DNA of 32,014 bases from an uncultured bacterium (GTDB taxonomy: Bacteria; Cyanobacteriota; Cyanobacteriia; Cyanobacteriales; Coleofasciculaceae): positions 1-32,014 of the forward strand of contig CBDTXL010000018.1 of assembly GCA_965364435.1 (NCBI GenBank), given 5' to 3'. The first letter of the stretch is position 1. Every line of letters starts with the position of its first letter. Position numbers and translations under genes: made by a program. The notes beneath the pieces were generated by a model that saw nothing but the letters and a program-made list of their open reading frames with translations, did no database searches and had not been told where the DNA came from. Shown here one piece after another: positions 4,397 to 27,808 of this stretch.

Positions 4397-4431
4397 CACG
4401 GCTTTCGAGGGTGAGCCGTGAATTGTTTTTT
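4397..4431 (+). terminator. Candidate rho-independent terminator after the helicase gene
   Basis: The 7-bp stem CACGGCT/AGCCGTG (4397-4403 with 4414-4420) has a 10-nt loop and is followed by AATTGTTTTTT. Confidence 0.4.
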
Positions 4432-4521
4432 AAGCAGGGAAGTCGCGGCTTTCTATTCTCTTACAACTAAAAGACATGACCGCTAGCGCGGAGTTGGATA
4501 GCGAGGTTTCATTCACTCGCT

Positions 4522-5649: not shown

Positions 5650-5750
5650 CGCTCCTATGGAGTTGGCAATGCGTTCTTTAGAGTACAGCCTTATGACGCG
5701 CATTGCCATACCTCTTCATTTGTCTTCACAACATCACCAGCGCTTTCATC

Positions 5751-6197: not shown

Positions 6198-6202
6198 CAA
6201 TC

Positions 6203-6421
6203 ATGCAAGAACGAGCCATTCTCATCCACTTTAATGAAACCACAGGCGAAGTCAAGATTGAAGCCGAGGGCTTTGAGGGACTCTCCTGCTTGGAAGCCAC
6301 GCAACCTTTTGAAGAGGCGTTGGGTGTCGTGAAGGAAAGCGATCGCACTTACAAACCGGAAGCACAAATCCAGCACACTCTCCGTAAAACTAACACCCAG
6401 TCTACCAGGCTGCGCCAGTAA
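6203..6421 (+). CDS. DUF2997 small protein
   Basis: The GFEGLSCLEATQPFEEALG motif (G-F-x-G-x-S-C...T...E-x-A-L-G) sits in a 72-aa protein, 5 nt after the DUF1257 stop. Confidence 0.6.
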   Translation: MQERAILIHFNETTGEVKIEAEGFEGLSCLEATQPFEEALGVVKESDRTYKPEAQIQHTLRKTNTQSTRLRQ

Positions 6422-6489
6422 CATTCCACTCGCGCCACATCACACTCCAAATACTTGCTCTGGGTGACAAACCCAGAGCCACTTTCCTT

Positions 6490-8112: not shown

Positions 8113-8201
8113 CTGAGTCTTTCAAACCATCTTTTACCCCTAGTCTGACTTTCTAACCAACTAGATAACCAGATTGGGGATGCATCGAATGGTGGATAAT
8201 C

Positions 8202-8777
8202 ATGACTAATGAACAAAATTACCATCAAATCTACTTAGTCTTTACCAACGCAGACGCTAATAGCAACAAGTTCTGGCAAGCCGTCGCGCACCGAACGGGC
8301 TCCTTAGTTACATCCTGGGGGCGTGTAGGATACAAAGGTCAGACAAAATCTTATCAGTGCGGTTCTTATCAAGCGGCAGTTGCCAAGCTCAACCAACTCG
8401 CCTTAGCCAAGAAACTCAAAGGTTACATAGAGACGGTTGCCCAAATAGAATCGCAAGAACAATCGCTTATCAAGCGGGCAATTCAGCTCCTAGAACTCAT
8501 CCATCCTCACGTAGAGCAGCGGGATTTCAGCAACCGGAATTACCTGGATGCTCTCAATGAGTACCTCACGATAATTCCAACACCTCTGGGCATGAAAATT
8601 GACCCAGCCACCATCTTTTCTCTAGCTGAAGTGAATCGGCAACGAGAGAGTCTTAAACGACTATTAAAGCGAGTGCCGGATACACCTGAAACCCAATCCT
8701 CTTCCTCAAGTTGCCAATCCATTTCCCTCAAATCCATCTCAGCAAGCTTTTGGAAAGCGGCTCGCACAAAGAAGTAG
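8202..8777 (+). CDS. Standalone WGR-domain protein
   Basis: KFWQAVAHRTGSLVTSWGRVGYKGQ carries the eponymous W...G.R core of WGR domains (as in PARP1 and MolR). The rest is helical with a Ser-rich tail. Confidence 0.6.
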   Translation: MTNEQNYHQIYLVFTNADANSNKFWQAVAHRTGSLVTSWGRVGYKGQTKSYQCGSYQAAVAKLNQLALAKKLKGYIETVAQIESQEQSLIKRAIQLLELIHPHVEQRDFSNRNYLDALNEYLTIIPTPLGMKIDPATIFSLAEVNRQRESLKRLLKRVPDTPETQSSSSSCQSISLKSISASFWKAARTKK

Positions 8778-8918
8778 CTTTCAGCTTAAAGCGAATGGTG
8801 TCCTAAACATAGGACGGCTGGAAGCTGTTCTCTGTTTATAACTCTACATTCCTCACTACACCGCTCTTAACCGACTTCCCTTTCAAAGAAGCGATTGCTC
8901 CCGGAGCCAATAAGTTTT

Positions 8919-8954
8919 CAGCCCCCTAACTGAAAGGTTGCGGGGCTTTCATTC
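8919..8954 (+). terminator. Possible hairpin terminator downstream of the WGR gene
   Basis: CAGCCCCC...GCGGGGCT stem followed by TTCATTC. The T-tract is weak. Confidence 0.25.
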
Positions 8955-8970
8955 AATCTTCTAAGGGAAC

Positions 8971-10119
8971 ATGATGGCAAAACCCGTGATTTTGCATTTT
9001 GGGTGGGGCTGTGATAGTGCCAGCATCCTGATTGAGTGGCTGACTAACCCAACTAGACGCGACTTTGAACTAGAAAATCTGGTCGTTCTCGCTGCTCAGA
9101 CCGGAAACGAATCTCAATTGATTAAACAACAAAATGAGCAACACATTTTTCCAGTTCTTCGCAAAAATCACATTAGAACCGTTCAGGTGGCGAAGTCCGG
9201 AAATTTCCTTGCCGATGGATATGACATCTTAGATGACAGCCGCAGCCCAACAACATGCTTCACTGAGGGTTCGTTCACCCTGGCGCAGGAACTCCTCATC
9301 GCCGGAACCGTTCCCAGTTACGCGAACAAGCGGCGACGTTGCTCAAGCAAGTTTAAAGGTACGGTACTCGATGCTTGGGTTAGGGATGAATTTGGAACAA
9401 CGCCAATTCGCTCCGTGTATGGCTATAACGCCGACGAACAGTATCGAGTGGATAGAGCGATCGCCTACATTAAGGATAACGAAACCCTATCATACCCGCT
9501 CATTCAATGGAATTGGAACCGTTCCAAAACTGAGTCCTATATGGCAGCCTTTGCTGGCGAACGCTTCTATAGAAGTGCTTGTATCATGTGTCCCTTCAGC
9601 GGAATTAGCGGCACTCGCCAGGAAATTATGACCAAATACCGCCTATATCCAGAAGAGGGCGGGTTGGCAGCGTTCATCGAGTTTGTTTCAATTTGCTTGA
9701 ACCCCAGACAAACCCTTTACACTAAAAGCCGCACAGTCCCTGACTTATTGCAAGAAGACAATAATCACGCCGCCCTAGAGAACTTGAACAAACGCCTAAG
9801 AGCAACGGATTGGAGTTTGTACCAGGTTCGACGAATTTACGGCTCTTTAGTGCCCTTCCGGTCAGTGCAGAAACTGCACACTGGCTCTCGTGAGGACTGT
9901 CAAACCAAGCTGGCAACCCGAGCTTCCCAACGCAACCTTCCCCTGGTCACTGAAACAGGAATCTCCCGTCTGTACCTGGAGAGACGAGGCGATGACGGAC
10001 GAGACTGTGAGGAAATGTACGTGGTTGCTCCGGCAACCGTCCAAAGTAAAGAACGCAAATCGTTTGAGAAAAGATGGACCCAAGCACATCAGTTGACTCT
10101 AGACCTTGGCTTCAAGTGA
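8971..10119 (+). CDS. Hypothetical protein with a degenerate N-terminal PP-loop (PAPS-reductase/QueC-like fold suspected) and a Cys-rich segment
   Basis: ILHFGWGCDSASILIEWL parallels the PP-loop h-x-F-S-G-G-K-D-S-x-x-h-h with SGG replaced by GWG. CIMCPFSG supplies additional Cys residues. Otherwise no recognisable motif. Confidence 0.4.
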   Translation: MMAKPVILHFGWGCDSASILIEWLTNPTRRDFELENLVVLAAQTGNESQLIKQQNEQHIFPVLRKNHIRTVQVAKSGNFLADGYDILDDSRSPTTCFTEGSFTLAQELLIAGTVPSYANKRRRCSSKFKGTVLDAWVRDEFGTTPIRSVYGYNADEQYRVDRAIAYIKDNETLSYPLIQWNWNRSKTESYMAAFAGERFYRSACIMCPFSGISGTRQEIMTKYRLYPEEGGLAAFIEFVSICLNPRQTLYTKSRTVPDLLQEDNNHAALENLNKRLRATDWSLYQVRRIYGSLVPFRSVQKLHTGSREDCQTKLATRASQRNLPLVTETGISRLYLERRGDDGRDCEEMYVVAPATVQSKERKSFEKRWTQAHQLTLDLGFK

Positions 10120-10262
10120 GTACACACTCCCTTAAGAGCAGAAGTTTCTGACGCCTTAAAAGCCACCCGTTGCAAACAACCTTCTTTTTTCAAATTGTCG
10201 TTGGGTAGGCTAGCGCCTGGTGCGTGAGTACGATTCATCCTCACTCGTCCTCGACTCAAAAA

Positions 10263-10637
10263 ATGGCACGAACCTTTCTCTCCAATTTTCCAGAGCTTGT
10301 CAACTCTTTAAATAACCTGACAATTAACGCGACCCCAACCCCAGCAGACTTTGCTGACGAGTTGCACTTACCTGTGATGAGATTTCCTTGTGACGAAGGA
10401 ATCGAGGCAGCGGAAGATGACCTGGTAAGAGAGGGAAAACTTTGGAAACGGCTCAATCTAGCCAAAGGAAGAATCCTCTGGGTTAATTATTCCGAAGCCG
10501 TAGCGGTTGGGCAGTTCCGATTGCTGTGGGATTGGATACAAGAAAACAGCTGCATCCTGTTATTTGAAGTCAATCAACATGAATTTTTTCCTAGCGGTTT
10601 GCACTTCTTCCTCAAGCCGCTCGGCAAAACATTCTGA
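10263..10637 (+). CDS. Hypothetical protein (ORF track starts at 10224; a Met at 10263 is also possible)
   Basis: Open frame on the operon strand. No recognisable motif. Confidence 0.3.
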   Translation: MARTFLSNFPELVNSLNNLTINATPTPADFADELHLPVMRFPCDEGIEAAEDDLVREGKLWKRLNLAKGRILWVNYSEAVAVGQFRLLWDWIQENSCILLFEVNQHEFFPSGLHFFLKPLGKTF

Positions 10638-10729
10638 TCAATAACAAAGACAAGATTGTCCGTAGCGTCAGTGATAGCGCTGCGGACACTTTTGCGACCA
10701 GAAAACTCCTTACTAACAACCAATAAAAG

Positions 10730-11086
10730 ATGCAAACCATAACTTTTGAGCCTCTTGATTCTGCACAAAATTCAGAGCAAACTCTCAGTATCAACCTGGT
10801 CAACTTAGTCGGCAATGCTGGTGCTGACCCAACCGTAAAGTACTTTGAATCGGGCCGTGTCAAATGCACTCTTACTCTAGCTGTTCGCAGTTTGAAAAAA
10901 GACCAGCCGGTCTGGTTCAATTTAGAGTTGTGGGGTAAGACCGCAGAAGTCGCGGCGAATTATGTTCGCAAAGGCAAGCAAATTGGTGTCACTGGCTCTT
11001 TGAAGATTGAAACCTGGCGGGACCCAGCTCTAGATGTTATTCGCTCCAAACCCGTAATTATCGTATCTAACCTTTACCTACTCTAA
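10730..11086 (+). CDS. ssb: Single-stranded DNA-binding protein (short OB-fold SSB without an acidic tail)
   Basis: INLVNLVGNAGADPTVKYFESGRVKCTLTLAV...W.NLELWGKTAEVAANYVRKGKQIGVTGSL matches the SSB OB-fold consensus (LVGNLG.DPE.RYT..G..V..F.LAV......W..V..WGK.AE....YL.KG..V.V.G.L). Confidence 0.65.
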   Translation: MQTITFEPLDSAQNSEQTLSINLVNLVGNAGADPTVKYFESGRVKCTLTLAVRSLKKDQPVWFNLELWGKTAEVAANYVRKGKQIGVTGSLKIETWRDPALDVIRSKPVIIVSNLYLL

Positions 11087-11092
11087 GCTCAA

Positions 11093-11389
11093 ATGAATAG
11101 CGCAACACTCTCCGGTAAAATTCTTCAAGAACCGGAAATTCGGCACACAATTGACCAGAAAACTCTGCTTCAGATGTATATTGCCATTCCGGCAAGAAAA
11201 GAGGATGAAGAACCTTCTTTGTTAAAAGTAAGCAGTTGGAATCAAACTTGTATTGAGCAGGCTCCAACTCTCAAAAATGGCGCTCAAGTTCTCATCACAG
11301 GACGACTTGGTATCAGAACTATCGACCGTCCAGAAGGGTTTAAAGAAAAGCGGGTCGAACTGGTTGCCGAGACAATTATTCCTCTGTAG
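11093..11389 (+). CDS. Second short SSB-like OB-fold protein in tandem
   Basis: MNSATLSGKILQEPEIRHT...VSSWNQTCIEQAPTLKNGAQVLITGRLGIRTIDRPEG repeats the SSB pattern. The start codon is 6 nt after the first SSB stop. Confidence 0.5.
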   Translation: MNSATLSGKILQEPEIRHTIDQKTLLQMYIAIPARKEDEEPSLLKVSSWNQTCIEQAPTLKNGAQVLITGRLGIRTIDRPEGFKEKRVELVAETIIPL

Positions 11390-11597
11390 CAAAACGGCTG
11401 TATCCTTTCGCCCTCTTGGAAACGAATTTGTTTTCAAGGGGGAAGATTTTTCAGAAATTCTATTTTCTTGGTGGTTGGGTCGGAATTTTCACCTTCTGTT
11501 GCACTCCTGTTACTTGTCCCACTTCAGGTGTATTGGCTTGATTAAGAAGCTGGTTTTTAGGGCGTGTCATCAAGCGCTTGTATTGGGGAAATTTTTT

Positions 11598-11627
11598 CCT
11601 ACACCCTACACCCTACACCCTACACCC
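11598..11627. repeat. Tandem heptamer array (CCTACAC) x4 plus partial; cyanobacterial STRR-like
   Basis: Directly visible: cctacac cctacac cctacac cctacac cc. Confidence 0.85.
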
Positions 11628-11644
11628 AGCCGAATGTTCAAGTA

Positions 11645-11675
11645 GCTTGTCACCCCGTCAGCACGCCCTAGCATC
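11645..11675 (+). repeat. Downstream copy of the ~30-bp imperfect direct repeat; the partner lies at 37..64
   Basis: GCTTGTCACCCCGTCAG matches GCTTGTCACCCCATCAG at 37-53 in 16 of 17 positions. It is followed by the related ACG-CCCT--AGC versus ACGACCCTCTAGC. Confidence 0.5.
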
Positions 11676-11748
11676 CGCGATCGCTCATAATTAAATTAAC
11701 CCTATTGGCGATCTCAACAGGAGCAGCGCTTGCGCTATCGCATTACCG

Positions 11749-12342
11749 ATGGAAACTCTAACGCTGAATGTACCCCCCACTGTAGGTCTAACAGACGAGC
11801 AGTTTTATCAGCTGTGTATAGCCAACAAAGAATGGCGGTTGGAACTCACTGCTGATGGAGAATTGATTATCATGCCCCCCACTGGTGGCGAAAGCGGCAT
11901 CAGCAATGCTGGTCTGACAGCTAAACTTTACAATTGGAACGACCAAACTCAACTGGGAAAAGTCTTTGACTCCTCCACAGAGTTTCGTTTACCTAGTGGT
12001 GCCAAGCGTTCCCCCGATGTCTCCTGGGTGATACTCCAACGATGGGAAGCCTTACCGCGCTCCGACAGGAAGCGCTTCCCTCCCCTCTGCCCAGATTTTG
12101 TAGTCGAACTCCGCTCTGAGACGGATTCCCTGGAACAATTGCGGTCAAAAATGCGGGAATACCTCGCCAACGGCATCCGCCTCGGCTGGCTGATTGACCC
12201 CCAAACGCCCTTAGTTGAAATCTATCGACCTTCAAGGGATGTAGAAACTATCAACTTCTCCTTTGACGACCCGCCCACACTTTCTGGCGAAGACGTGCTG
12301 CCTGGGTTTGTCCTCGATCTGACCCCCATTCTGAATCCTTGA
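11749..12342 (+). CDS. Uma2-family (DUF820) PD-(D/E)xK putative endonuclease
   Basis: The PDFVVELRSET motif (PD-x-x-V-E...S) and the overall architecture are typical of the abundant cyanobacterial Uma2 family. Confidence 0.75.
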   Translation: METLTLNVPPTVGLTDEQFYQLCIANKEWRLELTADGELIIMPPTGGESGISNAGLTAKLYNWNDQTQLGKVFDSSTEFRLPSGAKRSPDVSWVILQRWEALPRSDRKRFPPLCPDFVVELRSETDSLEQLRSKMREYLANGIRLGWLIDPQTPLVEIYRPSRDVETINFSFDDPPTLSGEDVLPGFVLDLTPILNP

Positions 12343-12824: not shown

Positions 12825-14132
12825 CTAGCAGAAACTTTTTTCATAGAAAAACTGGCTTTCTCCAAACGCTGGAGTCAGGTCTGTTAACCAAGTCGCTGCT
12901 GGATCGTACCGAGCAAAAAACGGACGCTTACACCAGTTGGGGTCTCGTCCTTGAATGAAGGACAATACAAAGACCTTTTCGCCGTTAATTTCTGTCACGC
13001 CATCGATGAGCACCTTTCCGGGCAACGCAGACATTACGGGACCCCGTACCGTTCGAGCTAAACCAGAGACTTTTTGCAAGGCGGCCTGAAAAATTTCCCA
13101 AACCCGCACCAGTGGAACTTCAAAGCAGTGCTTTGCTCCAGTGTCTCGTTCTACGAACAGGTAGTAAGGAATGCATCCCAAATGAACTTGTTCTTGCCAT
13201 AGACGAATCCATACATCTGGGTTGTCATTGATGCCTCGCATGAGTGGCCCCTGTGTCCGGATTTGTGCTCCGGTTGAACGGATACGTTGAATTGCGACTT
13301 GAGCCACTTCAGGTTCAAGTTCTTTCCAGTGGTCGTAGTGTCCTATAATGGCTAAATGCTTCCCGGCAAGGGATACTTTCTCAAACAGACGTAATAGATC
13401 GTCGGCATCGTGATCGCTCACATATCGGTAGGGCCAGTAAGCCATTGATTTAGTCCCAATGCGAATGGTTTGGATATGCTCATTAGCTGGCTCTAGTAAT
13501 GGTTCAATGTATCGCGCTAAGGCTGAAGCCGCCATCGTCATTGAATCGCCACCTGTGATTAAAACATCCGTTACTTCTTGATGCTGACGGAGATACTCTA
13601 AAAATCTTCCAGATTCCCGCGTAGCAAACTTTTGGCTTTCTGTGCCGACAAACTGAGTCCAACGAAAACAGAACGTGCAATAGGCATGGCAGGTTTGACC
13701 CGCTGTTGGGAACACCAAAACTGTTTCAGGATATTTGTGTTGAATTCCCAGCACTGGCTCACCATCTAGCACAGGGACGTTGTGCTCCATTTGACCTGCC
13801 GGATTGGGATTGAGTTGAGTACGAATCCTAGTGATTACCTCGTGCAGGAGTTCTGGTGAAGACTGGTTTTCGAGATGCCACATGACCTTATCCAAGGCTT
13901 CAGGAGATAGCATTTCCTCCTGAGGAAAGGTCAGGCGAAAGATGGGATCTTTGGGAATATTATTCCAATCGATCAATTCTTCAACTACGTAGTTATTGCT
14001 ACGGAAGGGCAGGACATGGGCAACCGCTTGCATCACAAAGCGATCGCGCGGTGAAAGCTGTTGGAGTTGAGGCAAATGTTCAATATCTTGGATACCGTAA
14101 AAGCGCTTGATTTTCGGTTGGATTGAGGACAT
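12825..14132 (-). CDS. KamA-family radical SAM protein (lysine 2,3-aminomutase-like)
   Basis: CHAYCTFCFR is the CxxxCxxC radical SAM cluster motif in the KamA arrangement. The length and N-terminal region are KamA-like. It starts 3 nt after the STAND gene stop on the same strand. Confidence 0.8.
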   Translation of the reverse strand: MSSIQPKIKRFYGIQDIEHLPQLQQLSPRDRFVMQAVAHVLPFRSNNYVVEELIDWNNIPKDPIFRLTFPQEEMLSPEALDKVMWHLENQSSPELLHEVITRIRTQLNPNPAGQMEHNVPVLDGEPVLGIQHKYPETVLVFPTAGQTCHAYCTFCFRWTQFVGTESQKFATRESGRFLEYLRQHQEVTDVLITGGDSMTMAASALARYIEPLLEPANEHIQTIRIGTKSMAYWPYRYVSDHDADDLLRLFEKVSLAGKHLAIIGHYDHWKELEPEVAQVAIQRIRSTGAQIRTQGPLMRGINDNPDVWIRLWQEQVHLGCIPYYLFVERDTGAKHCFEVPLVRVWEIFQAALQKVSGLARTVRGPVMSALPGKVLIDGVTEINGEKVFVLSFIQGRDPNWCKRPFFARYDPAATWLTDLTPAFGESQFFYEKSFC

Positions 14133-14135
14133 TGT

Positions 14136-17100
14136 TTATGCGATCGCCCCTAGGCGTTTGAGCATTTGCTGCTGTGCGGGGCTAAGACCTGTGGTACCCA
14201 TAATAACCATGCCCTCATAAATTCTGGGAGTACGCAACACTTGCCGACATTTGCCCGCCTCCACATCCCACAGACAAATCGTCCAATCTTGACTGGCACT
14301 GGCGAGGGTTTGCCCATCTGGACTAAACACAATAGACCGAACCCAATTTGTATGCCCGTGCAGTTTTTGAGAGCATCGACCTGTAGCAATTTCCCAAAGA
14401 CTGATGGTGTTGTTTGTCCCACCGCTAGCGAGGAGGCGACCATCGGGGCTAAATGCGATCGCACGAATATATCCGTCGCCCTCGTCAAATTCGCGTTCCA
14501 TTTGCTGCGTGTGAACGTGCCAAAGTCTGAGTACTGAGTCATCTCCACCAACCGCAACCAGTTGAGAGTTGGGGTGGAGTGCGATCGCCCAGACCCGATT
14601 TTTTCCCAAACTCTGCGGCTGTTTGATTACGGAAGCCTCTCCACCGGGAAGATGCCAAATCCGAATTGTTTCATCATCACTGCCACTAATGAGAATTTGT
14701 CCATCTCGGCTATAGACCACCGAGCGTACCGTATTGTCGTGTCCCTTTAGGAGGGGAAGCCATTTTTCCTGCTGAATGTCCCAGCGCTGCACCTGCCTAT
14801 CGTCGCTACCAATCGCTAGCTGGCTGCCGTCAGGACTAAACGCAACCGCACGAACCCAAGCATCCCAGCGTTTTAAGGTCTGGAATTTGCCTGTTTGAAG
14901 ATTCCACAGTCGCACCATGCGATCGTCTCCACCCGTCGCTAACAGCTTGCCATCGGGACTAAAGGCAACCGACCATATCCGTCCTTCATGTTCGCCAAGT
15001 ACTTGACAATCGCCAGTTTGAGCATCCCATAGACGAATAACTTTGTCATCGCTGCCACTGGCTAAAGTCTTCCCGTCTGGACTATAGGCAAGCGACCAAA
15101 TAGTATTGGTGTAGCCTTGCAGCACTCGAATACAGCGAAAGGTTGAGATACTCCAAAGCCGCACTGTTTTATCATCACTGCCACTGGCTAGGATTTGTCC
15201 ATCTGCCTTAAAGCCAACAGACCAGACTCGGCTATCATGTCCTTCCAGGATTTGAATGCATTGCTGTGTACACAAATCCCATAACCTCACGGTTGTATCG
15301 TCGCTGCAACTGGCAAGGTAACTTCCTGTTGAACTAAACGCGATCGCTCGAATCACATCCGTATGCCCCTGCCAAACGGCAAAACACATTCCCTTGTGAA
15401 TATCCCAAAGCTGGATAGTGCTATCATCCCCTCCACTGCCGAGGATTTGTCCATCAGGGCTAAATGCAACCGTCCAAATGCGACCGTGATGCCCTTCGAG
15501 AACTTGTCTGCATTCCCGCTTTTGAATATCCCACAATCTGATGCTACCGTCTGCGCTTCCACTAGCAAGGGTGCGTCCATCAGGGTTGAAGGCAACGGTA
15601 CGCACAAAATCTTGATGACCCTTGAATACATGCAAACTCTTGCCATCTTTCACACGCCAGAGTCGGACGGTACAATCGCTACTCGCACTTGCTAAATAGT
15701 TTCCATCTGGGCTAAACGCGATCGACCAGACCCAATTTGTGTGTCCTTCTAACGGGGCAGCGTCAAGAGGTTCACCTGTATGGACATTCCAGAGTCGAAT
15801 GGTGTGGTCATCGCTGCAACTTGCCAGAATTTGACGCTCAAGGCTGAAGGCAAGACATCGAACCCAGTTTCCGTGTGCCCGCCAAGTGAGCAGCTTTTTC
15901 CCGTTGGTTGCCTGCCATAGGTGGATCGTGCCATCACAATCACCCGCCGCTAACCAACTGCCATCGGGACTACAGGTAACACACAAGATGCTGTCTAAGA
16001 TGTCGGTAAAACTACAGCGCGTGAACGTGGAGTGAGAAAAATCAACGTTGTGCAAAGCAACTCGTTCGAGGTCGGCTTGGCAAATGTTCAGATTAGAGAA
16101 ATTACATCCCTCTAAACTAATTTGTAAATGATGCAGTAAACGCAGAATATTTGCAGCGGCATACCCGGTTGCTAAGGATGATTTTTTTAGCTCAATTGAA
16201 ACAATGCCGAGCAAAACGTTCTTGACTTGTTCCTTGCTGCCCAGCGTTGCCATGAGACGATCGCCGAGCGGTTCCAGAATTCGAGAGATTTGAGCATCTT
16301 TGACAGTCATCTCGACGTCGGATTGGGCTTTCACCAAAACGTGACTCTCAAAAACATCGATTTCTTTCGACAGAATTTCTTGATGAATTTGCTCGATGAA
16401 TCGATAGGTGACATATTCCATAATGACTGGATGCAGTGTGAATTTTGTCACTTCGGAGCGTTCATCGATCGCAATGAGGGAGCGCCGATTCAAAGATTCC
16501 AAATCTTCCATTAACTGGAGTTTTAAATCAGGCGAGACGATATCCATTTGCAAATCCTGGAGTGAGACGGGCTGCCGCTCGATCGCCAGCCAATAGAGGA
16601 TGTCTATCTCGGGTTGCGACAGACGCTCAAACTGTTGCAATAGCAAGTCACGAATATCGCCAACAAAGACGGGAATGTTTTGCTTGAGAAATGCCGCTAT
16701 ACTGCCGCGAAATAACTCTTTAATTGTCGTTGTCACAATCTTCAGCGCCAGTGGATTGCGTTCGTACCGCTCCATCAGCGCTTGCCGTTCAACTTGGGAA
16801 CTAGACACTCCTTTTGCTCGAATAATTTCCTCTGCATCCACTTGTTCAAGTCCAAGCAATTGATAGGAGCGAACGGGTAGTGTTTCCCCTTCCAGTGCTG
16901 CGATCTCTTTCGGTTTTTCTCGGCTGGTGAGAATCAAACAACTCTGATGGGAACCTTCTCCGATTCGCCGGAAAAGCTCGCCGTAGGTTTCATAACCTGT
17001 TCGATAGACTCCTGATCGCCCTTCCTGGAACAGTGATTCCACATTGTCTAGAATCAGCAAACACCGATGCTTGCGAAGTTGTTCTAGTAACTTCGTGATG

Positions 17101-17681
17101 CGAGAAGCGCTCTCACCCAGTACTGCATCCGTTTTCAATGATTTTGGGAAGCTGGAGAGGAAACTCGACAGTAGTTCCTGAAGGGAGGGTGCGTCCTTGA
17201 GCGATCGCCACACGATAAACTTAAATTCCCGCTCAATTGCCGCTTGGGTTGTTAATTTAACTGCCAAGGAGGTTTTGCCAATGCCACCGACACCGAATAC
17301 TGTAATCAATCGGCACTTATCCCCCACAATCCAATCCTGTAACAACGCCAGTTCTGCCGTGCGACCGTAGAACATCGAAACATCCGGTGCGTCGCCTAAG
17401 TCTTGAAACCGTTGAGAAATATTTTCCTGACTGGCTTGATACTGTAGCTCCAGGATGCGCTTGAACTCTGCCAACTTTCCGGGACCACTGCCTGCAATTG
17501 AGAATTTTCTGTAGACTTCGCCGAGTCGCTTGCGAACAGCAACCTCACTAATACCCAAGGTTTTTGCGATCGCCGTTGCAGACTGACCCTCTATAGCAAG
17601 TGCGATCGCCCGTAACTCTGCCTCTGATACACCGTACTTGGGTAACAACTCTGCCAGAAACCGCTCAGGGATAGAAGGCAT
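14136..17681 (-). CDS. STAND NTPase with N-terminal LuxR/sigma-70-region-4-like HTH, NB-ARC, a pentapeptide-like linker and 14 WD40 repeats
   Basis: The HTH is SATAIAKTLGISEVAVRKRLGEVYRKF. The P-loop is VFGVGGIGKTSLAV and Walker B is CLLILDNVE. RNBS-B-like CLILTSR and GLPLAL-like NPLALKIV are present. There are fourteen h-R-L-W-D/N-h WD repeat ends, enough for two 7-blade propellers. Confidence 0.9.
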   Translation of the reverse strand: MPSIPERFLAELLPKYGVSEAELRAIALAIEGQSATAIAKTLGISEVAVRKRLGEVYRKFSIAGSGPGKLAEFKRILELQYQASQENISQRFQDLGDAPDVSMFYGRTAELALLQDWIVGDKCRLITVFGVGGIGKTSLAVKLTTQAAIEREFKFIVWRSLKDAPSLQELLSSFLSSFPKSLKTDAVLGESASRITKLLEQLRKHRCLLILDNVESLFQEGRSGVYRTGYETYGELFRRIGEGSHQSCLILTSREKPKEIAALEGETLPVRSYQLLGLEQVDAEEIIRAKGVSSSQVERQALMERYERNPLALKIVTTTIKELFRGSIAAFLKQNIPVFVGDIRDLLLQQFERLSQPEIDILYWLAIERQPVSLQDLQMDIVSPDLKLQLMEDLESLNRRSLIAIDERSEVTKFTLHPVIMEYVTYRFIEQIHQEILSKEIDVFESHVLVKAQSDVEMTVKDAQISRILEPLGDRLMATLGSKEQVKNVLLGIVSIELKKSSLATGYAAANILRLLHHLQISLEGCNFSNLNICQADLERVALHNVDFSHSTFTRCSFTDILDSILCVTCSPDGSWLAAGDCDGTIHLWQATNGKKLLTWRAHGNWVRCLAFSLERQILASCSDDHTIRLWNVHTGEPLDAAPLEGHTNWVWSIAFSPDGNYLASASSDCTVRLWRVKDGKSLHVFKGHQDFVRTVAFNPDGRTLASGSADGSIRLWDIQKRECRQVLEGHHGRIWTVAFSPDGQILGSGGDDSTIQLWDIHKGMCFAVWQGHTDVIRAIAFSSTGSYLASCSDDTTVRLWDLCTQQCIQILEGHDSRVWSVGFKADGQILASGSDDKTVRLWSISTFRCIRVLQGYTNTIWSLAYSPDGKTLASGSDDKVIRLWDAQTGDCQVLGEHEGRIWSVAFSPDGKLLATGGDDRMVRLWNLQTGKFQTLKRWDAWVRAVAFSPDGSQLAIGSDDRQVQRWDIQQEKWLPLLKGHDNTVRSVVYSRDGQILISGSDDETIRIWHLPGGEASVIKQPQSLGKNRVWAIALHPNSQLVAVGGDDSVLRLWHVHTQQMEREFDEGDGYIRAIAFSPDGRLLASGGTNNTISLWEIATGRCSQKLHGHTNWVRSIVFSPDGQTLASASQDWTICLWDVEAGKCRQVLRTPRIYEGMVIMGTTGLSPAQQQMLKRLGAIA

Positions 17682-17759
17682 TGATACGACTTGTTGACCT
17701 CACAAAATATATTCCTAATTATAGGTCGCCGTTCTGCAAGCTATTTTCTCTATAAAAGC

Positions 17760-17792
17760 TTGACATCCTGAACTGCCTGTGGTGAAATATAG
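17760..17792 (+). promoter_or_regulatory. Candidate sigma-70-type promoter for the kinase operon (TTGACA -35 at 17760-17765, weak -10 near 17786-17792), overlapping the palindrome
   Basis: Perfect TTGACA. With 17-nt spacing it is followed by TGaAATATA (extended -10-like, imperfect). Confidence 0.3.
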
Positions 17793-17823
17793 GCTATCTC
17801 ACTTTGTGAGATAGCCTATATTT
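17785..17823. promoter_or_regulatory. Perfect 18-bp-arm palindrome AAATATAGGCTATCTCAC-ttt-GTGAGATAGCCTATATTT in the divergent STAND/kinase intergenic region. It may be an operator or an RNA hairpin.
   Basis: Directly visible: the arms are exact reverse complements with a 3-nt spacer. Confidence 0.7.
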
Positions 17824-18061
17824 ATGAGGATGCCGGAAACAGTCGTGCTCAAAACGTCGGCAGCACGTATCAGAGTCCCTATCTACAGTCCCTTATCTCA
17901 CTAGTCCTGTTAGGTTACTGACGCTTAACCCGCAAGATTTATCAATTAATTCTTTCAACGTCTTGAAACGACGTTGATTCCCAGGCGTTCGCTACTTTTG
18001 CAGGTACAGCTAAACAAGTAAAAGCCCCTATTTGTCTGAAACTAGAGAGTAGGCTACTCCA

Positions 18062-19393
18062 ATGCAACTTTGGACACCAAATCAACCCCTGCAAAACGGA
18101 AGATTTATTATTCAAAAACTCCTTGGAGGTGGAGGTTTTGGTGTCACTTATAGCATCATTGAATACCGTACAGGTAAATTATTTGTTATCAAAACCCTAA
18201 ACCAACAGCAACAAAGTCAAGCAGATTTCCAGCAGCGACAAGTAAAGTTTGTCAATGAGGCGCTACGGTTAGCTAGATGTAGTCATCCCCATATTGTTCA
18301 AGTCTATGAAGTTATCGAAGAAGATGGACTCTGGGGGATGGTAATGGAATATATTGATGGGCGAAATTTAGAGGTTTATATTCATGAGCGTGGGCAGCTA
18401 CCAGAGGATGAGGCACTACGCTACATTGACCAAGTGGGGAAAGCCCTAGAATATGTCCACCAACAAGGATTTTTACATCGGGATATCAAGCCGAATAATA
18501 TTCTGCTGCGCCGTAGTACCCAAGAAGCTGTACTGATTGATTTCGGTTTAGCACGCGAATTTACCATTGGTAAAACAGGAAGCATAACGAATGCCAGGAC
18601 GGAAGGTTATGCACCCATTGAACAGTATGAAAGACGGGGGAATTTTGGTTTCTATACTGATGTTTATGCCTTAGCCGCGACACTGTATACTTTACTCACT
18701 ACTCAAGTGCCTGTTCCTGCTCGTTTCAGAAAGTATGCACAATTACCGCCACCAAAGCAGCATAATTCCAAAATTAGCGACAGGGTGAATGATGCTATTG
18801 TCAAGGGAATGGCGTTGTCACCGCAAGAGCGATCGCAAACAGTGCGCGAGTTTAGACAATTGCTTGGCATTGCAACGATTGAATCATCAGACTCTATTCC
18901 ACAAGCCCCTGTATATACACCTTCCCCACCCTATTCAGAGGTTGATTACTCTAAACTAGAGGATTTCTTGAAAGCCCATCAGTGGAAAGAAGCTGATCGT
19001 GAAACTTATCTAGTGATGCTTCAAGCTGTTGGGCGTCAGAAGGAGGGTTGGATGAGAACACAGGAATTATCAAACTTTCCCTGTACTGTTCTTTGCCAGA
19101 TTGACCAACTCTGGGTAGCGTACAGCGATGATAAATTTGGCTTAAGTGTTCAGCAGAAAACCTGGCGTAGCATTGGCGGTCAACCTGACAAGTTCGATAT
19201 TGCAACCTTTTGTAAGTTTGGTGATTACGTGGGCTGGCGAAGGAATAGCGAATGGTTAAGCTACGAGCGTTTTACCTTTAGCTTAGAGGCTCGAAAAGGG
19301 CATCTTCCGGCATTGGGATATGGGGTTCAGCGTTGGGACGAATGGCAATCTAGTTGTTGGGATTTATTCCCTCGCGTTCTTCATTGTCTATAG
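18062..19393 (+). CDS. Hanks-type Ser/Thr protein kinase with a C-terminal GUN4-like domain
   Basis: Gly-rich loop LGGGGFGVTY, a VIKTL lysine, catalytic loop HRDIKPNNILL and DFGLAREF. The C-terminal HQWKEADRET...LW..YS...FG.SVQ...W...GG pattern is GUN4_N-like. Confidence 0.85.
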   Translation: MQLWTPNQPLQNGRFIIQKLLGGGGFGVTYSIIEYRTGKLFVIKTLNQQQQSQADFQQRQVKFVNEALRLARCSHPHIVQVYEVIEEDGLWGMVMEYIDGRNLEVYIHERGQLPEDEALRYIDQVGKALEYVHQQGFLHRDIKPNNILLRRSTQEAVLIDFGLAREFTIGKTGSITNARTEGYAPIEQYERRGNFGFYTDVYALAATLYTLLTTQVPVPARFRKYAQLPPPKQHNSKISDRVNDAIVKGMALSPQERSQTVREFRQLLGIATIESSDSIPQAPVYTPSPPYSEVDYSKLEDFLKAHQWKEADRETYLVMLQAVGRQKEGWMRTQELSNFPCTVLCQIDQLWVAYSDDKFGLSVQQKTWRSIGGQPDKFDIATFCKFGDYVGWRRNSEWLSYERFTFSLEARKGHLPALGYGVQRWDEWQSSCWDLFPRVLHCL

Positions 19394-19506
19394 CAATATC
19401 TTTTTAATCTTACTTTAATATTTGGGAATTTTTAAGAGTCAAAAATTGTCGATTGACGAGATTTAGTTAACACCACTTCTTTGTTGTCAAAAAGGATAGC
19501 ATTACT

Positions 19507-21858
19507 ATGAAAGCCAAGCTATTTGTCAGTATTCTAGCTGCTAGTGCAATGGCTCTAGGCAGCATTGATAGCAAGAGTCAGTCTATTGATTCAGTAAATC
19601 CTCTATTAACAACAGCTTCAGTAGAACACCCCCCAAATCTGCTGTCTAGTCAAACTCCAATTACGGTTGTATCAGTACAAACTAGCCCCGGAAACCCAAT
19701 CCATCAGCCCGTCAGAACTGCACAAATATCACTGGTTTGGCCTTTTGCTATTTTTTTTGTATTTGGAGTTCTTGCGTTTGCAGTTATCACGCCAAGAGGA
19801 GTCGTGGTAATTGGTAACAATGAAGTTGGGATTGTGATTAAAAGATTTAACCTTAATCCCTTTGTCCCTAAACTCCCTGCTGGTCAACTCATAGCCTTGA
19901 AAGGAGAAGCTGGCCCCCAAGCGAAAATCCTTACCCCTGGTTTGCATTGGGGCTATTTTCCTAGGATGTATATCATCCGTAAGGAGTCGGTGATTAATAT
20001 TTCCCCGGAAGAAATTGGACTAGTCGTTGCCAAAGATGGTGCGCCCATCTTACCGGGACAACTTTTCGGTAAGGTTATTGAATGTAATAGCTTTCAGGAT
20101 GCGTGTACGTTTATCGAAAATGGAGGTCAGAGGGGTAAACAGGTAGCAATTCTAACTGATGGCACGTACCGGATTAACACTGAACTATTTACCATTCACA
20201 AGAAGCCAGTCATCAATATTCCCCCAGGAGAAATTGGGCTAGTCGTTGCCGAAGATGGTGCCCCCATGCCACCCGAACAACTATTGGGCAAAGTTGTCGA
20301 TTGCAATACCTTTCAAGATGCGCGTGCGTTTATCGAAAATGGAGGTCAGAAGGGTAGACAGCTAGCAATTCTAACGGCTGGTACCTACCAGATTAATACT
20401 GATCTGTTCACCGTAATTACTGCTGTTAATGCCACTCAATATGGCATGAATCCCAAGGATTTACAGGTGTATACGGTGGAGGCTGGTAAGGTTGGCATTG
20501 TCACCACTTACGATGGTGTCTCAATTAAACCCGGTGAGATTGCTGGTTCGCCTGTTCCAGATCATGGCAACTTCCAAAATGGGCAAAAATTTATTGATGG
20601 AGGCGGACGTAAAGGTTTGCAAGAAGAGGTTCTACCACCTGGTTCTTGGAACCTCAATCCCTGGTTTGTCAAGGTTGAGCAAGTAGAACTGAGTGAGGTT
20701 CCTGTTGGGACAGTTGGAGTTATCATCTCCCACGTTGGCAAACCTTCTGAGAATAAGGCTGGTGTAGTTAAGCCGGGATGCAAGGGAGTTTGGAATATCC
20801 CCCTCTATCCTGGTAAGCACGTAATCAACACAAGAGTGATGAATGTGGAGATAGTTCCAACTCTTCCCATTGCACTGGACTGGTCAAACAAAAAAAAGCC
20901 GCCTACAAACTACGATGCCAACCTTCATGCGATACAGCTGCGCTCTAAGGATGGATTTTGTTTTGATATAGAAGTAACGCAAGTTATTCGCGTAGCGGAA
21001 GAAAACGCTCCCACTATGATCTATCGTGTTGGTAACACGGTTGGGGGTTCTGCTAGTAACTCCATAAAAGCTCTGATCGTAAAGGTACTACAGCCAGCAG
21101 TTAGCAATTACTTTTGTAATTCTGCCCAAAATTCTGAAGCGCTAGACTTTCTCGACAAACGTAGCGATCAACAAAGACAAGCAAAAGATTATATTAAATC
21201 AGCGCTTAGTGATTTTGGTGTTGAAGCCGTTGATACGTTGATTGGTGAGATTGACCTACCTGATAGGTTGGAAAAGATTTTAACCGATCGCAAAATCGCT
21301 GAGGAACAGCGCAAAACCTTAGAGGCTAAACAAAAGACAGAACAAGAACGCCAAAAACTTGCCCACGCAGAAGCGCTAGTGAATATTCAAGCAGATTTGG
21401 CTAAGTTTGAACAGGGTGTGAAGATTGCTGAACTCAAAGCTCTAGCAGAGAGCTATGAAACGAAGGCGAAAACAGAACTAGCTCGAGAAGAAGGTAAAGT
21501 GCAAGCCGAAGTTCTACGAGCAGTTGTTGATATCCTTGGTCATGAAAACTATGTGGATATTGAGAAACTGAAGGAGCTAGTTAAAATTAAACTTCCAGAA
21601 ATTTTGGTTAGTAATTCTCATGAGGGCGGTTCTGGATTAGCGGATATCTTTACGGCTCCGTTGTTAAGGACTCTGATAACTAGTACCATTACTTCAAGTA
21701 GTGATTTATCAGCAGCGCACCAGGTTCAAAAAACCTTAGAAACTTCATCTCCATCGACGGCACTTCCTCAAAGTTATATTGTCTGTACTCGTTGTGAGAC
21801 TAGGAATCCATTGGACAACAGTTTCTGCTTAAGGTGCGGTAATCAACTAATTAGTTGA
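19507..21858 (+). CDS. Secreted/membrane SPFH (flotillin-like) protein with an internal tandem duplication, a long EA-rich coiled coil and a C-terminal CxxC...CxxC zinc ribbon
   Basis: Signal peptide MKAKLFVSILAASAMALGS, a TM helix LVWPFAIFFVFGVLAFAVI, and RGVVVIGNNEVGIVIKRF (SPFH start). Two ~66-aa modules are ~75% identical. The C-terminus is CTRCETRNPLDNSFCLRCGNQ. Confidence 0.65.
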   Translation: MKAKLFVSILAASAMALGSIDSKSQSIDSVNPLLTTASVEHPPNLLSSQTPITVVSVQTSPGNPIHQPVRTAQISLVWPFAIFFVFGVLAFAVITPRGVVVIGNNEVGIVIKRFNLNPFVPKLPAGQLIALKGEAGPQAKILTPGLHWGYFPRMYIIRKESVINISPEEIGLVVAKDGAPILPGQLFGKVIECNSFQDACTFIENGGQRGKQVAILTDGTYRINTELFTIHKKPVINIPPGEIGLVVAEDGAPMPPEQLLGKVVDCNTFQDARAFIENGGQKGRQLAILTAGTYQINTDLFTVITAVNATQYGMNPKDLQVYTVEAGKVGIVTTYDGVSIKPGEIAGSPVPDHGNFQNGQKFIDGGGRKGLQEEVLPPGSWNLNPWFVKVEQVELSEVPVGTVGVIISHVGKPSENKAGVVKPGCKGVWNIPLYPGKHVINTRVMNVEIVPTLPIALDWSNKKKPPTNYDANLHAIQLRSKDGFCFDIEVTQVIRVAEENAPTMIYRVGNTVGGSASNSIKALIVKVLQPAVSNYFCNSAQNSEALDFLDKRSDQQRQAKDYIKSALSDFGVEAVDTLIGEIDLPDRLEKILTDRKIAEEQRKTLEAKQKTEQERQKLAHAEALVNIQADLAKFEQGVKIAELKALAESYETKAKTELAREEGKVQAEVLRAVVDILGHENYVDIEKLKELVKIKLPEILVSNSHEGGSGLADIFTAPLLRTLITSTITSSSDLSAAHQVQKTLETSSPSTALPQSYIVCTRCETRNPLDNSFCLRCGNQLIS
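20001..20412 (+). repeat. Intragenic tandem duplication (~192 bp units at 20001-20193 and 20221-20412, ~78% nucleotide identity). A more divergent third unit follows.
   Basis: Nucleotide and protein alignment by eye: EEIGLVVAKDGAPILPGQLFGKVIECNSFQDACTFIENGGQRGKQVAILTDGTYRINTELFT versus GEIGLVVAEDGAPMPPEQLLGKVVDCNTFQDARAFIENGGQKGRQLAILTAGTYQINTDLFT. Confidence 0.8.
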
Positions 21859-23339
21859 TTGAATTTAGCCTTGCCGTGCGAAACGGGAAGTATGGCGTTA
21901 TTGCGAGTGTAACTAAGTCAAACTTCAGTCGCAATAACGAACAATATCAAAGCTTATTTTTTCCCATGCCAGCTAAAATCATCCTCACTGTCACCCAAGG
22001 CAAACTCCCAGGACAACAATTTATCTTTAACTCCCGCACTACCTGTATTATCGGCAGAAGTGCAGATTGCAATCCTCAACTGCCTAATGATGAAGACCAT
22101 CGCACCATCTCCCGCTATCATTGTTTGCTAGATATCAACCCCCCTGCCATCCGGGTGCGAGACTTTGGCAGTAAAAATGGTACTTACGTCAATGGCAAAA
22201 AAATTGGACAGCGCCAAGCCGACCAAACCCCAGAAGAAGGCGCAAAACTGCAATTTCCAGAGCATGACTTGCAGGATGGGGACAAACTAGAACTGGGTAA
22301 TACTGTTTTTACCATCGATATCGAAGTTGCTCCACAGGAGATAAATATCCCCAACTTCTTTCCTGGCACTATTAATGTGAACAACGACCCAACACAACCG
22401 CCAAATTTTTGGGAAATGATTAAACACTTGTTAGGTTTAGCTGAAGGAGGTGACAATAATCTAATTGCAATTCGCGGTTATCAAATTGTAAAAAGACTAG
22501 GAAAAGGTGGATGCGGGGAAGTTTATTTAGCACAGGACAATTACTCTGAGAAATTGGTAGCACTAAAGGTGATGTTACCAACAGTAGCGGCTAGTGAGTA
22601 CGCCGTGCAGATGTTTCTTAGAGAAATGGAAAACACCAAAGCTTTACGACATCCCCATGTAGTGCAGCTAATAGATAATGGATACTCCGAAAACATTTTC
22701 TTCTTTACAATGGAGTATTGCGAAGGGGGTAGTGTATCTGATTTAATGCGCCAGCAGGGGGGACGGCTATCTATTGATATAGCAGTGCCGATTGTTCTAC
22801 AAGTTCTCGATGGTTTGGAATACACGCACAATGCCAAAATTCCCTATGTCAAACTGGGTAATGGCACCTTCGGCAAAGGCAGGGGTTTAGTTCACCGCGA
22901 CCTCAAACCTAATAATATCTTCCTTGCCTGGGTTGATGAAAAAGTTGTTGCTAAAATCGGCGATTATGGCTTATCTAAGGCATTTGACATAGCTGGTTTA
23001 AGCGGTCAAACTCTCTCTGGTACTAAAGCAGGTACTCCCGTTTTTATATCCCGACAGCAGGTGCTTAACTTCAAATATGCCCAGCCAGACGTAGATATTT
23101 GGGCTACTGCTGCTTGTCTCTACTATATGCTCACGGGAACTTTCCCCCGCAACTTCACAGGCGACGATCCATTTTTGGCAGTATTGCAAACTGACGCCGT
23201 GCCAATTCGTCAGCGAGATTCAGCTATTCCGAAACCACTGGCGGAGGTAATTGATTGGGCCTTGGTGGAGAAGCCAGAAATTTACTTTAAGAGTGCGACG
23301 GAGTTCAAGCAGGCGTTGTTGGGTGCTTTATGCTATTAA
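21855..23339 (+). CDS. FHA-domain plus Ser/Thr kinase fusion protein (an alternative start at 21966, MPAKIIL, is possible)
   Basis: FHA: IIGRSADC...ISRYHCLL...VRDFGSKNGTYVNGKKI. Kinase: LGKGGCGEVYL, ALKVM, HRDLKPNNIFL, DYGLSK. ATGA overlap with the upstream gene. Confidence 0.8.
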   Translation: MIEFSLAVRNGKYGVIASVTKSNFSRNNEQYQSLFFPMPAKIILTVTQGKLPGQQFIFNSRTTCIIGRSADCNPQLPNDEDHRTISRYHCLLDINPPAIRVRDFGSKNGTYVNGKKIGQRQADQTPEEGAKLQFPEHDLQDGDKLELGNTVFTIDIEVAPQEINIPNFFPGTINVNNDPTQPPNFWEMIKHLLGLAEGGDNNLIAIRGYQIVKRLGKGGCGEVYLAQDNYSEKLVALKVMLPTVAASEYAVQMFLREMENTKALRHPHVVQLIDNGYSENIFFFTMEYCEGGSVSDLMRQQGGRLSIDIAVPIVLQVLDGLEYTHNAKIPYVKLGNGTFGKGRGLVHRDLKPNNIFLAWVDEKVVAKIGDYGLSKAFDIAGLSGQTLSGTKAGTPVFISRQQVLNFKYAQPDVDIWATAACLYYMLTGTFPRNFTGDDPFLAVLQTDAVPIRQRDSAIPKPLAEVIDWALVEKPEIYFKSATEFKQALLGALCY

Positions 23340-24193: not shown

Positions 24194-24778
24194 ATGAAAT
24201 TATCAGATTACGCAAAAGCTCAAGGCGTCAGTTACAGAACAGCGTGGAGCTGGTGGAAGAAAGGCATTATTAAGGGTCGTCAACTTCCAACAGGAACCAT
24301 ACTAGTCGAAATTGACGCAGTTTCTACATCATCCGTTGTTGCCTGTATTTATGCCAGAGTCTCCAGCTCAGAAAATAAAAGCAACTTAGATCGGCAGGCC
24401 GAAAGACTGTCTTTATATGCAACAGCCAAAGGTTATACCATCAACAAAGTTGTGAAAGAGGTAGGAAGCGGGCTAAATGACAATCGCAAAAAATTAAATC
24501 AACTTTTGCTAGATAGAAGTTTCAATGTCTTAGTAGTAGAACACAAAGATCGTTTAACCAGATTTGGTGCTAAATACATCGAAATTTTTCTGTCAGAAAC
24601 AGACAGAAGACTAGAAGTAGTTAACGGTGTTCCTGACGATAAAGAAGACTTGATGACAGATTTTGCGAGTGTCATTACATCATTTTGTGCAAGGCTGTAT
24701 GGGATGAGAAGAGCAAAGCGTAAGACAGAAAAACTCATTAGTGAACTTCAGTCAAATGGAGACAATGAGACTTGTTGA
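24194..24778 (+). CDS. tnpA: IS607-type TnpA serine recombinase (MerR-like HTH plus resolvase catalytic domain)
   Basis: MKLSDYAKAQGVSYRTAWSWWKKG is the typical IS607 TnpA HTH start. IYARVSSSENK carries the catalytic serine. Confidence 0.85.
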   Translation: MKLSDYAKAQGVSYRTAWSWWKKGIIKGRQLPTGTILVEIDAVSTSSVVACIYARVSSSENKSNLDRQAERLSLYATAKGYTINKVVKEVGSGLNDNRKKLNQLLLDRSFNVLVVEHKDRLTRFGAKYIEIFLSETDRRLEVVNGVPDDKEDLMTDFASVITSFCARLYGMRRAKRKTEKLISELQSNGDNETC

Positions 24779-27779: not shown

Positions 27780-27808
27780 CACTTTGGTGCTGCTTGAAAC
27801 TAGGCATC

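Follow-up and report, generated by a model that had tools for sequence, protein, structure and literature searches.

Several described STAND proteins combine a P-loop NTPase with a DNA-binding domain and a repeat sensor. MalT of Escherichia coli, AfsR (SARP-STAND) of Streptomyces and GutR of Bacillus subtilis are ligand- and ATP-dependent switches of this kind for dedicated metabolic or biosynthetic genes, which often lie nearby, and Apaf-1 (and Dark, CED-4) has an N-terminal output domain followed by an NB-ARC module, a winged-helix/helical region and two WD40 propellers. KamA-type radical S-adenosylmethionine (SAM) enzymes include the lysine 2,3-aminomutase KamA of Clostridium subterminale (PDB 2A5H) and EpmB (YjeK) of E. 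coli, and Eam (C. difficile) and, presumably, IdnL4 (incednine) are radical-SAM/pyridoxal 5′-phosphate (PLP) aminomutases that act on an acidic amino acid. Here we analysed 32,014 nucleotides from an uncultured bacterium of the cyanobacterial family Coleofasciculaceae (contig CBDTXL010000018.1, positions 1 to 32,014; hereafter the window), in which a gene for a STAND protein with helix-turn-helix (HTH), NB-ARC and WD40 regions lies directly upstream of a gene for a KamA-family enzyme. Heterocyst-forming and related cyanobacteria conserve the two genes as a module. The architecture of the one protein and the class of the other were each known, and the new element is the conserved link between them: our literature search found no description of the pairing, and the STAND papers of Kaur et al. 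2020 and Nature 2026 name neither a KamA partner nor this family.

Loci were fetched for close cyanobacterial homologues of the enzyme (64-76% identity). In the window the STAND gene (1181 aa) is separated from the enzyme gene by 3 nt, and the same order on the same strand was seen in three Nostoc assemblies (L001, L006 and L007; STAND protein of ~1184 aa, spacer of 280-390 nt), Scytonema hofmanni UTEX 2349 (L005; ~1186 aa, ~280 nt), Calothrix NIES-4071 and NIES-4105 (L003 and L008; 1188 aa, stop and start overlapping as GTGA) and a further cyanobacterial assembly (L089; 1185 aa, 39-nt gap). Scytonematopsis contorta (L088) carries two upstream fragments on the same strand, one of 243 aa with GerE and NB-ARC and one of 297 aa with WD40, and another cyanobacterial assembly (L094) a same-strand WD40-only open reading frame (ORF) of 487 aa; in both, the junction with the enzyme gene is again a GTGA overlap, which is thus found in three lineages (Calothrix, Scytonematopsis and L094). 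Truncation of a STAND gene by the contig edge in L094 was ruled out by upstream in-frame stops, which put the start of the ORF near nt 47-119, so that this locus has only the WD40 part. The pairing is therefore real and more than chance, since order and strand recur in at least six further independent assemblies while the flanking genes differ in every lineage; described from the window in the initial annotation, it is kept in homologous loci. All paired enzymes fell in one clade of a neighbour-joining enzyme tree, distinct from the copies of Fischerella and Calothrix parasitica that lie in a cluster with P450, thioesterase and class IV aminotransferase genes. The copy of Nostoc C117 groups with the latter, with matching neighbour sizes, and those of Moorena, Symploca, Oscillatoria, Spirulina and Jaaginema lie outside the paired clade and have other neighbours. 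Because the paired enzymes form a single clade separate from the other copies, the simplest history is an ancestral pair kept in one cyanobacterial lineage. A search of PLSDB plasmids gave no near-identical DNA. A class V aminotransferase was considered as a conserved partner (Nostoc, Calothrix, Ectothiorhodospira, Paraburkholderia) and dropped, as these proteins are not a single orthologous group.

The pairing might instead be inherited adjacency with no functional link, one of many HTH-NB-ARC paralogues lying by chance upstream of a metabolic gene. The HTH-NB-ARC core is found in a family of more than 1400 cyanobacterial proteins, many per genome and in varied contexts, with LuxR-type or XRE-type heads and often only ~530 aa long, without a propeller; two paralogues that were checked have unrelated neighbours. 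The enzyme-linked STAND genes do not form one clade among these paralogues in a neighbour-joining tree of the NB-ARC region, which is star-like, and some members of the enzyme clade lack an intact STAND gene. Against this, order and strand persist although the STAND proteins are only 37-55% identical across lineages (65-75% for the enzymes) and all flanks differ, stop and start codons overlap in three lineages, and the enzyme-linked copies with a complete gene share a two-propeller form of 1181-1193 aa that is absent from the best 120 paralogues. Mere adjacency fits poorly with the overlapping codons and with a pair that was retained although all surrounding synteny disappeared, and we regard it as highly improbable.

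The junction in the window reads ...GCG ATC GCA TAA ACA ATG TCC..., and the last STAND codons before the stop contain the cyanobacterial HIP1 palindrome (GCGATCGC, 14139-14150), which agrees with the contig being of cyanobacterial origin. A simple consensus scan of the window found no terminator-like and no minus-strand promoter-like site between the two genes, a point on which co-transcription, as proposed in the initial annotation, could have failed. With the 3-nt gap and the GTGA overlaps of the orthologues, the sequence is compatible with a single transcript over both genes. The Nostoc and Scytonema spacers (L001 7610-8000; L006 9673-10000; L005 9063-9340) are AT-rich; ~125 nt past the STAND stop are strongly conserved, and TTAAAAATAATAAT recurs right before the enzyme start. 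No terminator-like site was found in these spacers and no Rfam match in that of Nostoc, and their conservation suggests either a regulatory element that has been conserved or an insertion into a once-tight junction. The divergent intergenic region ahead of the STAND gene contains a perfect 18-nt inverted repeat (17785-17802 and 17806-17823, with a 3-nt spacer: AAATATAGGCTATCTCAC AAA GTGAGATAGCCTATATTT) that is unique in the window and may act as an operator or form an RNA hairpin. Compared with shuffled versions, the region folds much better (z -5.7), and Rfam gave no match in the window. We also noted ACCTCACA at 17697-17704, a single copy in the window, 16 nt ahead of the STAND start codon; CTCACA is present upstream of the STAND gene in all four lineages, where 0.04-0.29 copies are expected per region, but this motif was picked post hoc and is a lead only.

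The domains of the STAND protein, and all motifs named for them in the initial annotation, were found, and ORF calls and the junction sequence bear out the ORFs, coordinates, minus strand and 3-nt gap given there. Pfam matched NB-ARC with an E-value of 1.6e-10 (41.1 bits against a cut-off of 23.5), the pentapeptide stretch at 27.7 bits (over the cut-off) and WD40 in 14 stretches (488 bits), which are enough repeats for propellers; they presumably form a double seven-bladed propeller, the putative sensor. The N-terminal HTH was the weakest call, with GerE at an E-value of 2e-3 and 18.2 bits, under the cut-off of 23.5, and HTH_23 at 19.9 bits. Support for this call comes from 38 of 46 aligned STAND paralogues, which do match GerE (E<=0.01, best 1e-7), from the N-terminus of the Calothrix orthologue, which is canonical LuxR-type, and from an AlphaFold model of residues 1-560 (mean pLDDT 85, with low confidence in the pentapeptide stretch), in which the HTH is a four-helix bundle (helices 6-16, 20-30, 35-42 and 46-59; pLDDT 90-96). 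The Scytonematopsis remnant scored 23.4 bits against GerE. The best PDB matches of the model in Foldseek were NRC3, Apaf-1, ZAR1 and CED-4 (probability 1.0), and on these matches the protein is of the NB-ARC/AP-ATPase type with the domain order of Apaf-1, an HTH replacing the CARD. It differs from Apaf-1 further in the pentapeptide stretch ahead of the propellers and is 13-17% identical to it. Compared with MalT, AfsR and GutR, its HTH is N-terminal and of LuxR type, whereas that of MalT is C-terminal and AfsR has a SARP domain; and its NTPase and sensor, as read from the sequence, are an NB-ARC/AP-ATPase and a WD40 double propeller, whereas those regulators sense through tetratricopeptide-like repeats.

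The downstream gene encodes a member of the KamA family, as the initial annotation had it from the CxxxCxxC motif, and profile and fold matches place it in a divergent subfamily. Among NCBIfam models, it matched TIGR00238 (KamA family) with an E-value of 8e-36 and 123.6 bits, under the cut-off of 199.2, and was far below the cut-offs of the lysine-specific TIGR03820 (116 bits against 525) and TIGR03821 (97 against 369); its 94.2 bits against 650 place it outside the Eam equivalog TIGR04368. A PDB profile search matched 2A5H (E 2e-21), which was also the sole close PDB match of the AlphaFold model (pTM 0.85) in Foldseek, with a TM-score of 0.60-0.65. The protein was aligned to E. coli EpmB, taken from an annotated genome, and to the clostridial lysine 2,3-aminomutase, whose residues 67-321 were checked against the PDB profile match; for the remainder, including the C-terminal segment, we used what we take to be the sequence of that enzyme. 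It shares with both the CxxxCxxC motif, the carboxylate-binding Arg, the PLP Lys, the fold and the N-terminal helical region, and has in addition a ~33-residue insert ahead of the barrel and a distinct beta-rich C-terminal domain. The C-terminal fragment gave no match among PDB sequences, so the identification of Lys373 as the PLP lysine rests on the EpmB/lysine 2,3-aminomutase alignment. Without exception among 311 family members (cyanobacterial, actinobacterial and of other phyla), the cluster cysteines, Arg157, Arg329 and Lys373 are conserved. Judged by this alignment, the residues for PLP/radical-SAM aminomutase chemistry are all kept.

The residues that would bind the substrate side chain are different. 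In place of Asp293 of lysine 2,3-aminomutase the enzyme has Arg329, Asp330 (Glu325 in EpmB) is replaced by Val or Ser at position 366, and the zinc-site cysteines of the clostridial enzyme are absent (Cys268, Cys375, Cys377 and Cys380 align with N/S/D, A, L and A, respectively). Since both acidic residues that bind the epsilon-amino group are lost and Arg329 is invariant, the label 'lysine 2,3-aminomutase' is very probably wrong on substrate. Glutamate 2,3-aminomutase (Eam) reportedly also has a basic residue in place of Asp293. A regulated beta-amino-acid pathway, as first suggested for this pair, fits the evidence, but the beta-lysine offered as its example does not, given Arg329, Val/Ser366 and scores far under the aminomutase cut-offs. 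A cationic residue at the side-chain-binding position indicates a substrate with an anionic side chain, and L-glutamate, with beta-glutamate as product, is our best guess at roughly even chances, because of Arg329 and of the genes around a homologue of 50% identity (E 7e-156) in Streptomyces sp. NBC_00334. There the order is type I polyketide synthase (PKS), proline-iminopeptidase-family hydrolase, enzyme, PLP-dependent enzyme, AMP-binding enzyme and type I PKS, a set whose gene content agrees with the cassette that supplies beta-amino-acid starter units to macrolactams of the incednine type. For incednine itself, IdnL4 is the radical-SAM protein held to turn L-glutamate into beta-glutamate, which IdnL3 then decarboxylates (PMC11284099). 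No protein named IdnL4 occurred among the best 120 matches to the Streptomyces homologue. The window gene has no PKS cassette, and the paired cyanobacterial loci have the STAND gene only. Aminotransferases of Jaaginema and Streptomyces were compared as a shared IdnL3-like partner and rejected, being only 22% identical.

The reading we favour, and hold to be about evenly poised between right and wrong, is that a STAND transcription factor gated by a signal shares an operon with a radical-SAM aminomutase that forms a beta-amino acid, probably beta-glutamate. By analogy with MalT, AfsR, GutR and Apaf-1, a ligand on the WD40 double propeller would relieve autoinhibition of the STAND protein, the NB-ARC module would then swap ADP for ATP and oligomerise, and the clustered HTHs would bind repeated sites in the upstream region (17682-18061), switching the operon, including the aminomutase gene, and thereby setting beta-amino-acid production. 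In Paraburkholderia a divergent LysR regulator adjoins the enzyme gene, which thus has a dedicated local regulator elsewhere too.

A number of points weigh against this reading, beginning with the sub-cut-off GerE score and the star-like NB-ARC tree given above. The DNA binding, regulatory target, ligand and substrate of the pair are inferred. A Xenococcaceae member of the paired enzyme clade has no STAND gene, and in Scytonematopsis the enzyme gene is intact and the STAND gene broken. The Nostoc and Scytonema spacers hold promoter-like hexamers, so the enzyme gene could have its own promoter there. The enzyme is likened to IdnL4 only through the cassette of its homologue. For IdnL4 itself, a knock-out of idnL4 supports the role, but activity in vitro was never seen (PMC11284099).

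The same tight junctions would also suit a partnership at the protein level, in which the propellers bind the aminomutase or sense its state (for example that of its oxygen-labile Fe-S cluster), as a sensor with its reporter or a scaffold with its enzyme. A 3-nt spacer and GTGA overlaps imply that translation of the two genes is coupled, as is often the case for subunits of one complex. Propellers of the WD40 type mostly have proteins or peptides as ligands (cytochrome c for Apaf-1), and no other conserved pathway gene adjoins the pair. In most phyla, however, the enzyme family works alone or in unrelated clusters, Scytonematopsis has kept its enzyme gene beside a broken STAND gene, and an HTH output still implies transcription; we consider such a partnership unlikely. 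Somewhat less probable again is a version in which the pair is a novel two-component device: an Apaf-1-like STAND protein that forms an apoptosome would read the state of the radical-SAM enzyme or of the beta-amino acid it produces, or would set off the enzyme as its effector, and the signal would pass to transcription with the enzyme as an integral signalling component. If true, multicellular cyanobacteria would have either a 'transcriptional apoptosome' of bacterial type or a metabolic immune effector.

Selection on the two genes bears on a further alternative, already raised in the initial annotation as an Avs-like effector system: that the STAND protein is an Avs/NLR-like sensor of invaders and the enzyme its effector, acting by amino-acid depletion or a toxic beta-amino acid. 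The architecture is Apaf-1-like, conflict systems of that build are enriched in multicellular cyanobacteria (PMC7159879), the window pair sits among mobile-element genes (Prim-Pol, single-stranded DNA-binding proteins (SSBs), RecD-like helicase, resolvase and TnpB, E2/JAB/E1), and the Xenococcaceae enzyme lies two genes downstream of a PNP_UDP_1 and FGE-sulfatase protein. Like the antiphage STAND proteins Avs1-5 and bNACHT, the window protein has a STAND NTPase and a large C-terminal sensor, and activation driven by oligomerisation is plausible. Unlike them, it has an HTH at the N-terminus and no nuclease, protease, TIR or other toxic effector, and its partner is a conserved metabolic enzyme. 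Between close Nostoc and Scytonema copies the ratio of nonsynonymous to synonymous substitution rates was 0.08-0.11 in the STAND gene, 0.09-0.115 in the WD40 part alone and 0.08-0.15 in the enzyme gene. By this measure both genes, the WD40 sensor included, are under equally strong purifying selection with no sign of diversification, unlike an arms-race receptor. In PADLOC the enzyme had no match; the STAND protein matched neither Avs nor NACHT, but its WD40 region matched the candidate family HEAT-ARM_XIII, and there were weak matches to IetA, PDC-S27 and CARF. The enzyme is 56-62% identical across phyla, within biosynthetic or metabolic clusters, viral contigs yield no close relative, only radical-SAM genes of 27-28% identity, and most paired loci lie on large chromosomal contigs with ordinary neighbours. 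The Avs-like proposal is thus not supported, and a role in conflict or defence is, in our estimate, very improbable.

Table 1. Positions in the window of the STAND gene, the enzyme gene and the features discussed.
Feature	Position	Strand	Evidence
KamA-family radical-SAM/PLP enzyme gene, 435 aa	12825..14132	-	NCBIfam, PDB profile, AlphaFold, Foldseek, Streptomyces homologue
Lys373, aligns with PLP-binding Lys337 of lysine 2,3-aminomutase and Lys332 of EpmB	13014..13016	-	alignment
Arg329, at lysine-binding Asp293 of lysine 2,3-aminomutase (Asp288 in EpmB)	13146..13148	-	alignment
Arg157, aligns with carboxylate-binding Arg134 of lysine 2,3-aminomutase and Arg129 of E. coli EpmB	13662-13664	-	alignment
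CHAYCTFC, [4Fe-4S]/SAM cluster motif, C148-x3-C152-x2-C155	13668..13691	-	alignment
Spacer ACA, 3 nt, between STAND stop TAA and aminomutase ATG	14133..14135	-	junction sequence
STAND ATPase gene, 1181 aa: HTH, NB-ARC, pentapeptide stretch, 14 WD40, C-terminal tail	14136..17681	-	ORF, Pfam, AlphaFold, Foldseek
C-terminal tail (..YEGM.I.G..GL...Q...L..LGA..), common to orthologues	14139..14246	-	translations
14 WD40 repeats, aa 563-1145	14247..15995	-	Pfam
Pentapeptide-repeat stretch, short, aa 522-560, linker from NTPase to propeller	16002..16118	-	Pfam
NB-ARC NTPase and winged-helix/helical region, aa 100-440	16362..17384	-	motifs, Pfam, fold match
MHD-like LHP, aa 416-418, past the winged helix	16428-16436	-	motif position
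GxP-type motif NPLAL, aa 309-313	16743-16757	-	motif position
Sensor-1/RNBS-B ILTSR, aa 250-254	16920-16934	-	motif position
Walker B LLILDN, aa 208-213	17043-17060	-	motif position
P-loop GVGGIGKT, aa 130-137	17271-17294	-	motif position
LuxR/GerE-type HTH, N-terminal, aa 1-62	17496..17681	-	GerE (sub-cut-off), paralogues, AlphaFold helices, Calothrix orthologue
Divergent intergenic region upstream of the STAND gene, 380 nt, presumed promoter/operator	17682..18061	.	sequence scans

Divergent from the STAND gene, on the plus strand, lie genes for a fusion of a Ser/Thr kinase and a GUN4 domain (18062-19393), an SPFH/Band-7 protein of 783 aa whose C-terminus carries a zinc ribbon (19507-21858) and an FHA-domain Ser/Thr kinase (21855-23339), the last two overlapping by 4 nt; these genes (18062-23339) are not conserved beside the pair in other genomes. 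At the start of the window, four plus-strand genes with overlapping or abutting ends (39-2805) encode Prok-E2_D (39-794), Prok-JAB (794-1363), ThiF/E1 (1367-2245) and a 187-aa protein (2242-2805), and are a prokaryotic ubiquitin-like conjugation set; the ThiF protein matched E1-E2/BilD models in PADLOC only weakly. The remainder of the window (2962-12342 and 24194-31751) looks like a plasmid or other mobile element. It includes tandem SSB genes (10730-11086 and 11093-11389), a serine resolvase with OrfB_IS605/TnpB (24194-25985) and separate ORFs for Prim-Pol (26131-27039), whose homologues are on plasmids of Gloeothece, Nostoc, Calothrix and Anabaena, and PriCT_2 (27102-27779), together with DUF4326 and Sipho_Gp157. 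The window also holds a RecD-like helicase, DUF1257, an AAA ATPase (IetA-like in PADLOC), a WGR/PARP_reg protein and Uma2.

A scan of a species-genome collection found the enzyme family in at least 586 species genomes, with 56-62% identity to the window enzyme in Ignavibacteria, Bacteroidota, Halomonas, Ectothiorhodospira, Paraburkholderia and others. No neighbour gene is universal across these loci; aminotransferases of several classes recur, and in Halomonas a TRAP transporter is near. Homologues also occur on actinobacterial and Burkholderiaceae plasmids, and in annotated plasmids the actinobacterial ones (~50% identical) lie in secondary-metabolite clusters of PKS and nonribosomal peptide synthetases. 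The homologue on plasmid pDK3 of Rhodococcus sp. DK176 (L095), present as the same gene on pRHL1 of R. jostii RHA1, is surrounded by genes for ATP-grasp enzymes, a carrier protein, an AMP-binding enzyme, a cupin, a luciferase-like monooxygenase, a SidA/IucD/PvdA N-hydroxylase, a class I tRNA-ligase-family protein and saccharopine dehydrogenase, and this uncharacterised cluster looks like a small-peptide or siderophore-like pathway. Fischerella thermalis (L086, 1-8250) and Calothrix parasitica NIES-267 (L087, 1-9766) share a conserved natural-product-like cluster with an ABC transporter, two P450s, a thioesterase, the KamA-like enzyme and a class IV aminotransferase, which in C. parasitica continues with a polyketide cyclase and a hexapeptide transferase; by neighbour sizes, Nostoc sp. 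C117 (L009) probably shares it. In the metagenome-assembled genome of the Xenococcaceae member (L093, 934-5958) the enzyme gene is preceded by that for a protein of 301 aa that matches no family and has a coiled-coil tail, and this in turn by that for a 679-aa protein of PNP_UDP_1 (nucleoside-phosphorylase-like) and FGE-sulfatase; a Tox-PL-2 gene is nearby.

Cyanobacteria encode hundreds of HTH-NB-ARC(-WD40) proteins, among which we found none with an assigned function, and the pair described here ties one STAND subgroup to a single conserved partner gene. Because a candidate target, a promoter region and a candidate metabolite are now defined, a bacterial regulator with the architecture of Apaf-1 becomes tractable. 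For the enzyme, the analysis would correct the annotation of a large KamA subfamily whose members bear the name 'lysine 2,3-aminomutase' in at least 586 species genomes but have an invariant Arg and no lysine-binding residues. The metabolite under regulation in cyanobacteria, halophiles and Ignavibacteria would probably be beta-glutamate or some other acidic beta-amino acid, and the same product would probably serve as a building block in natural-product clusters of actinobacteria and cyanobacteria.

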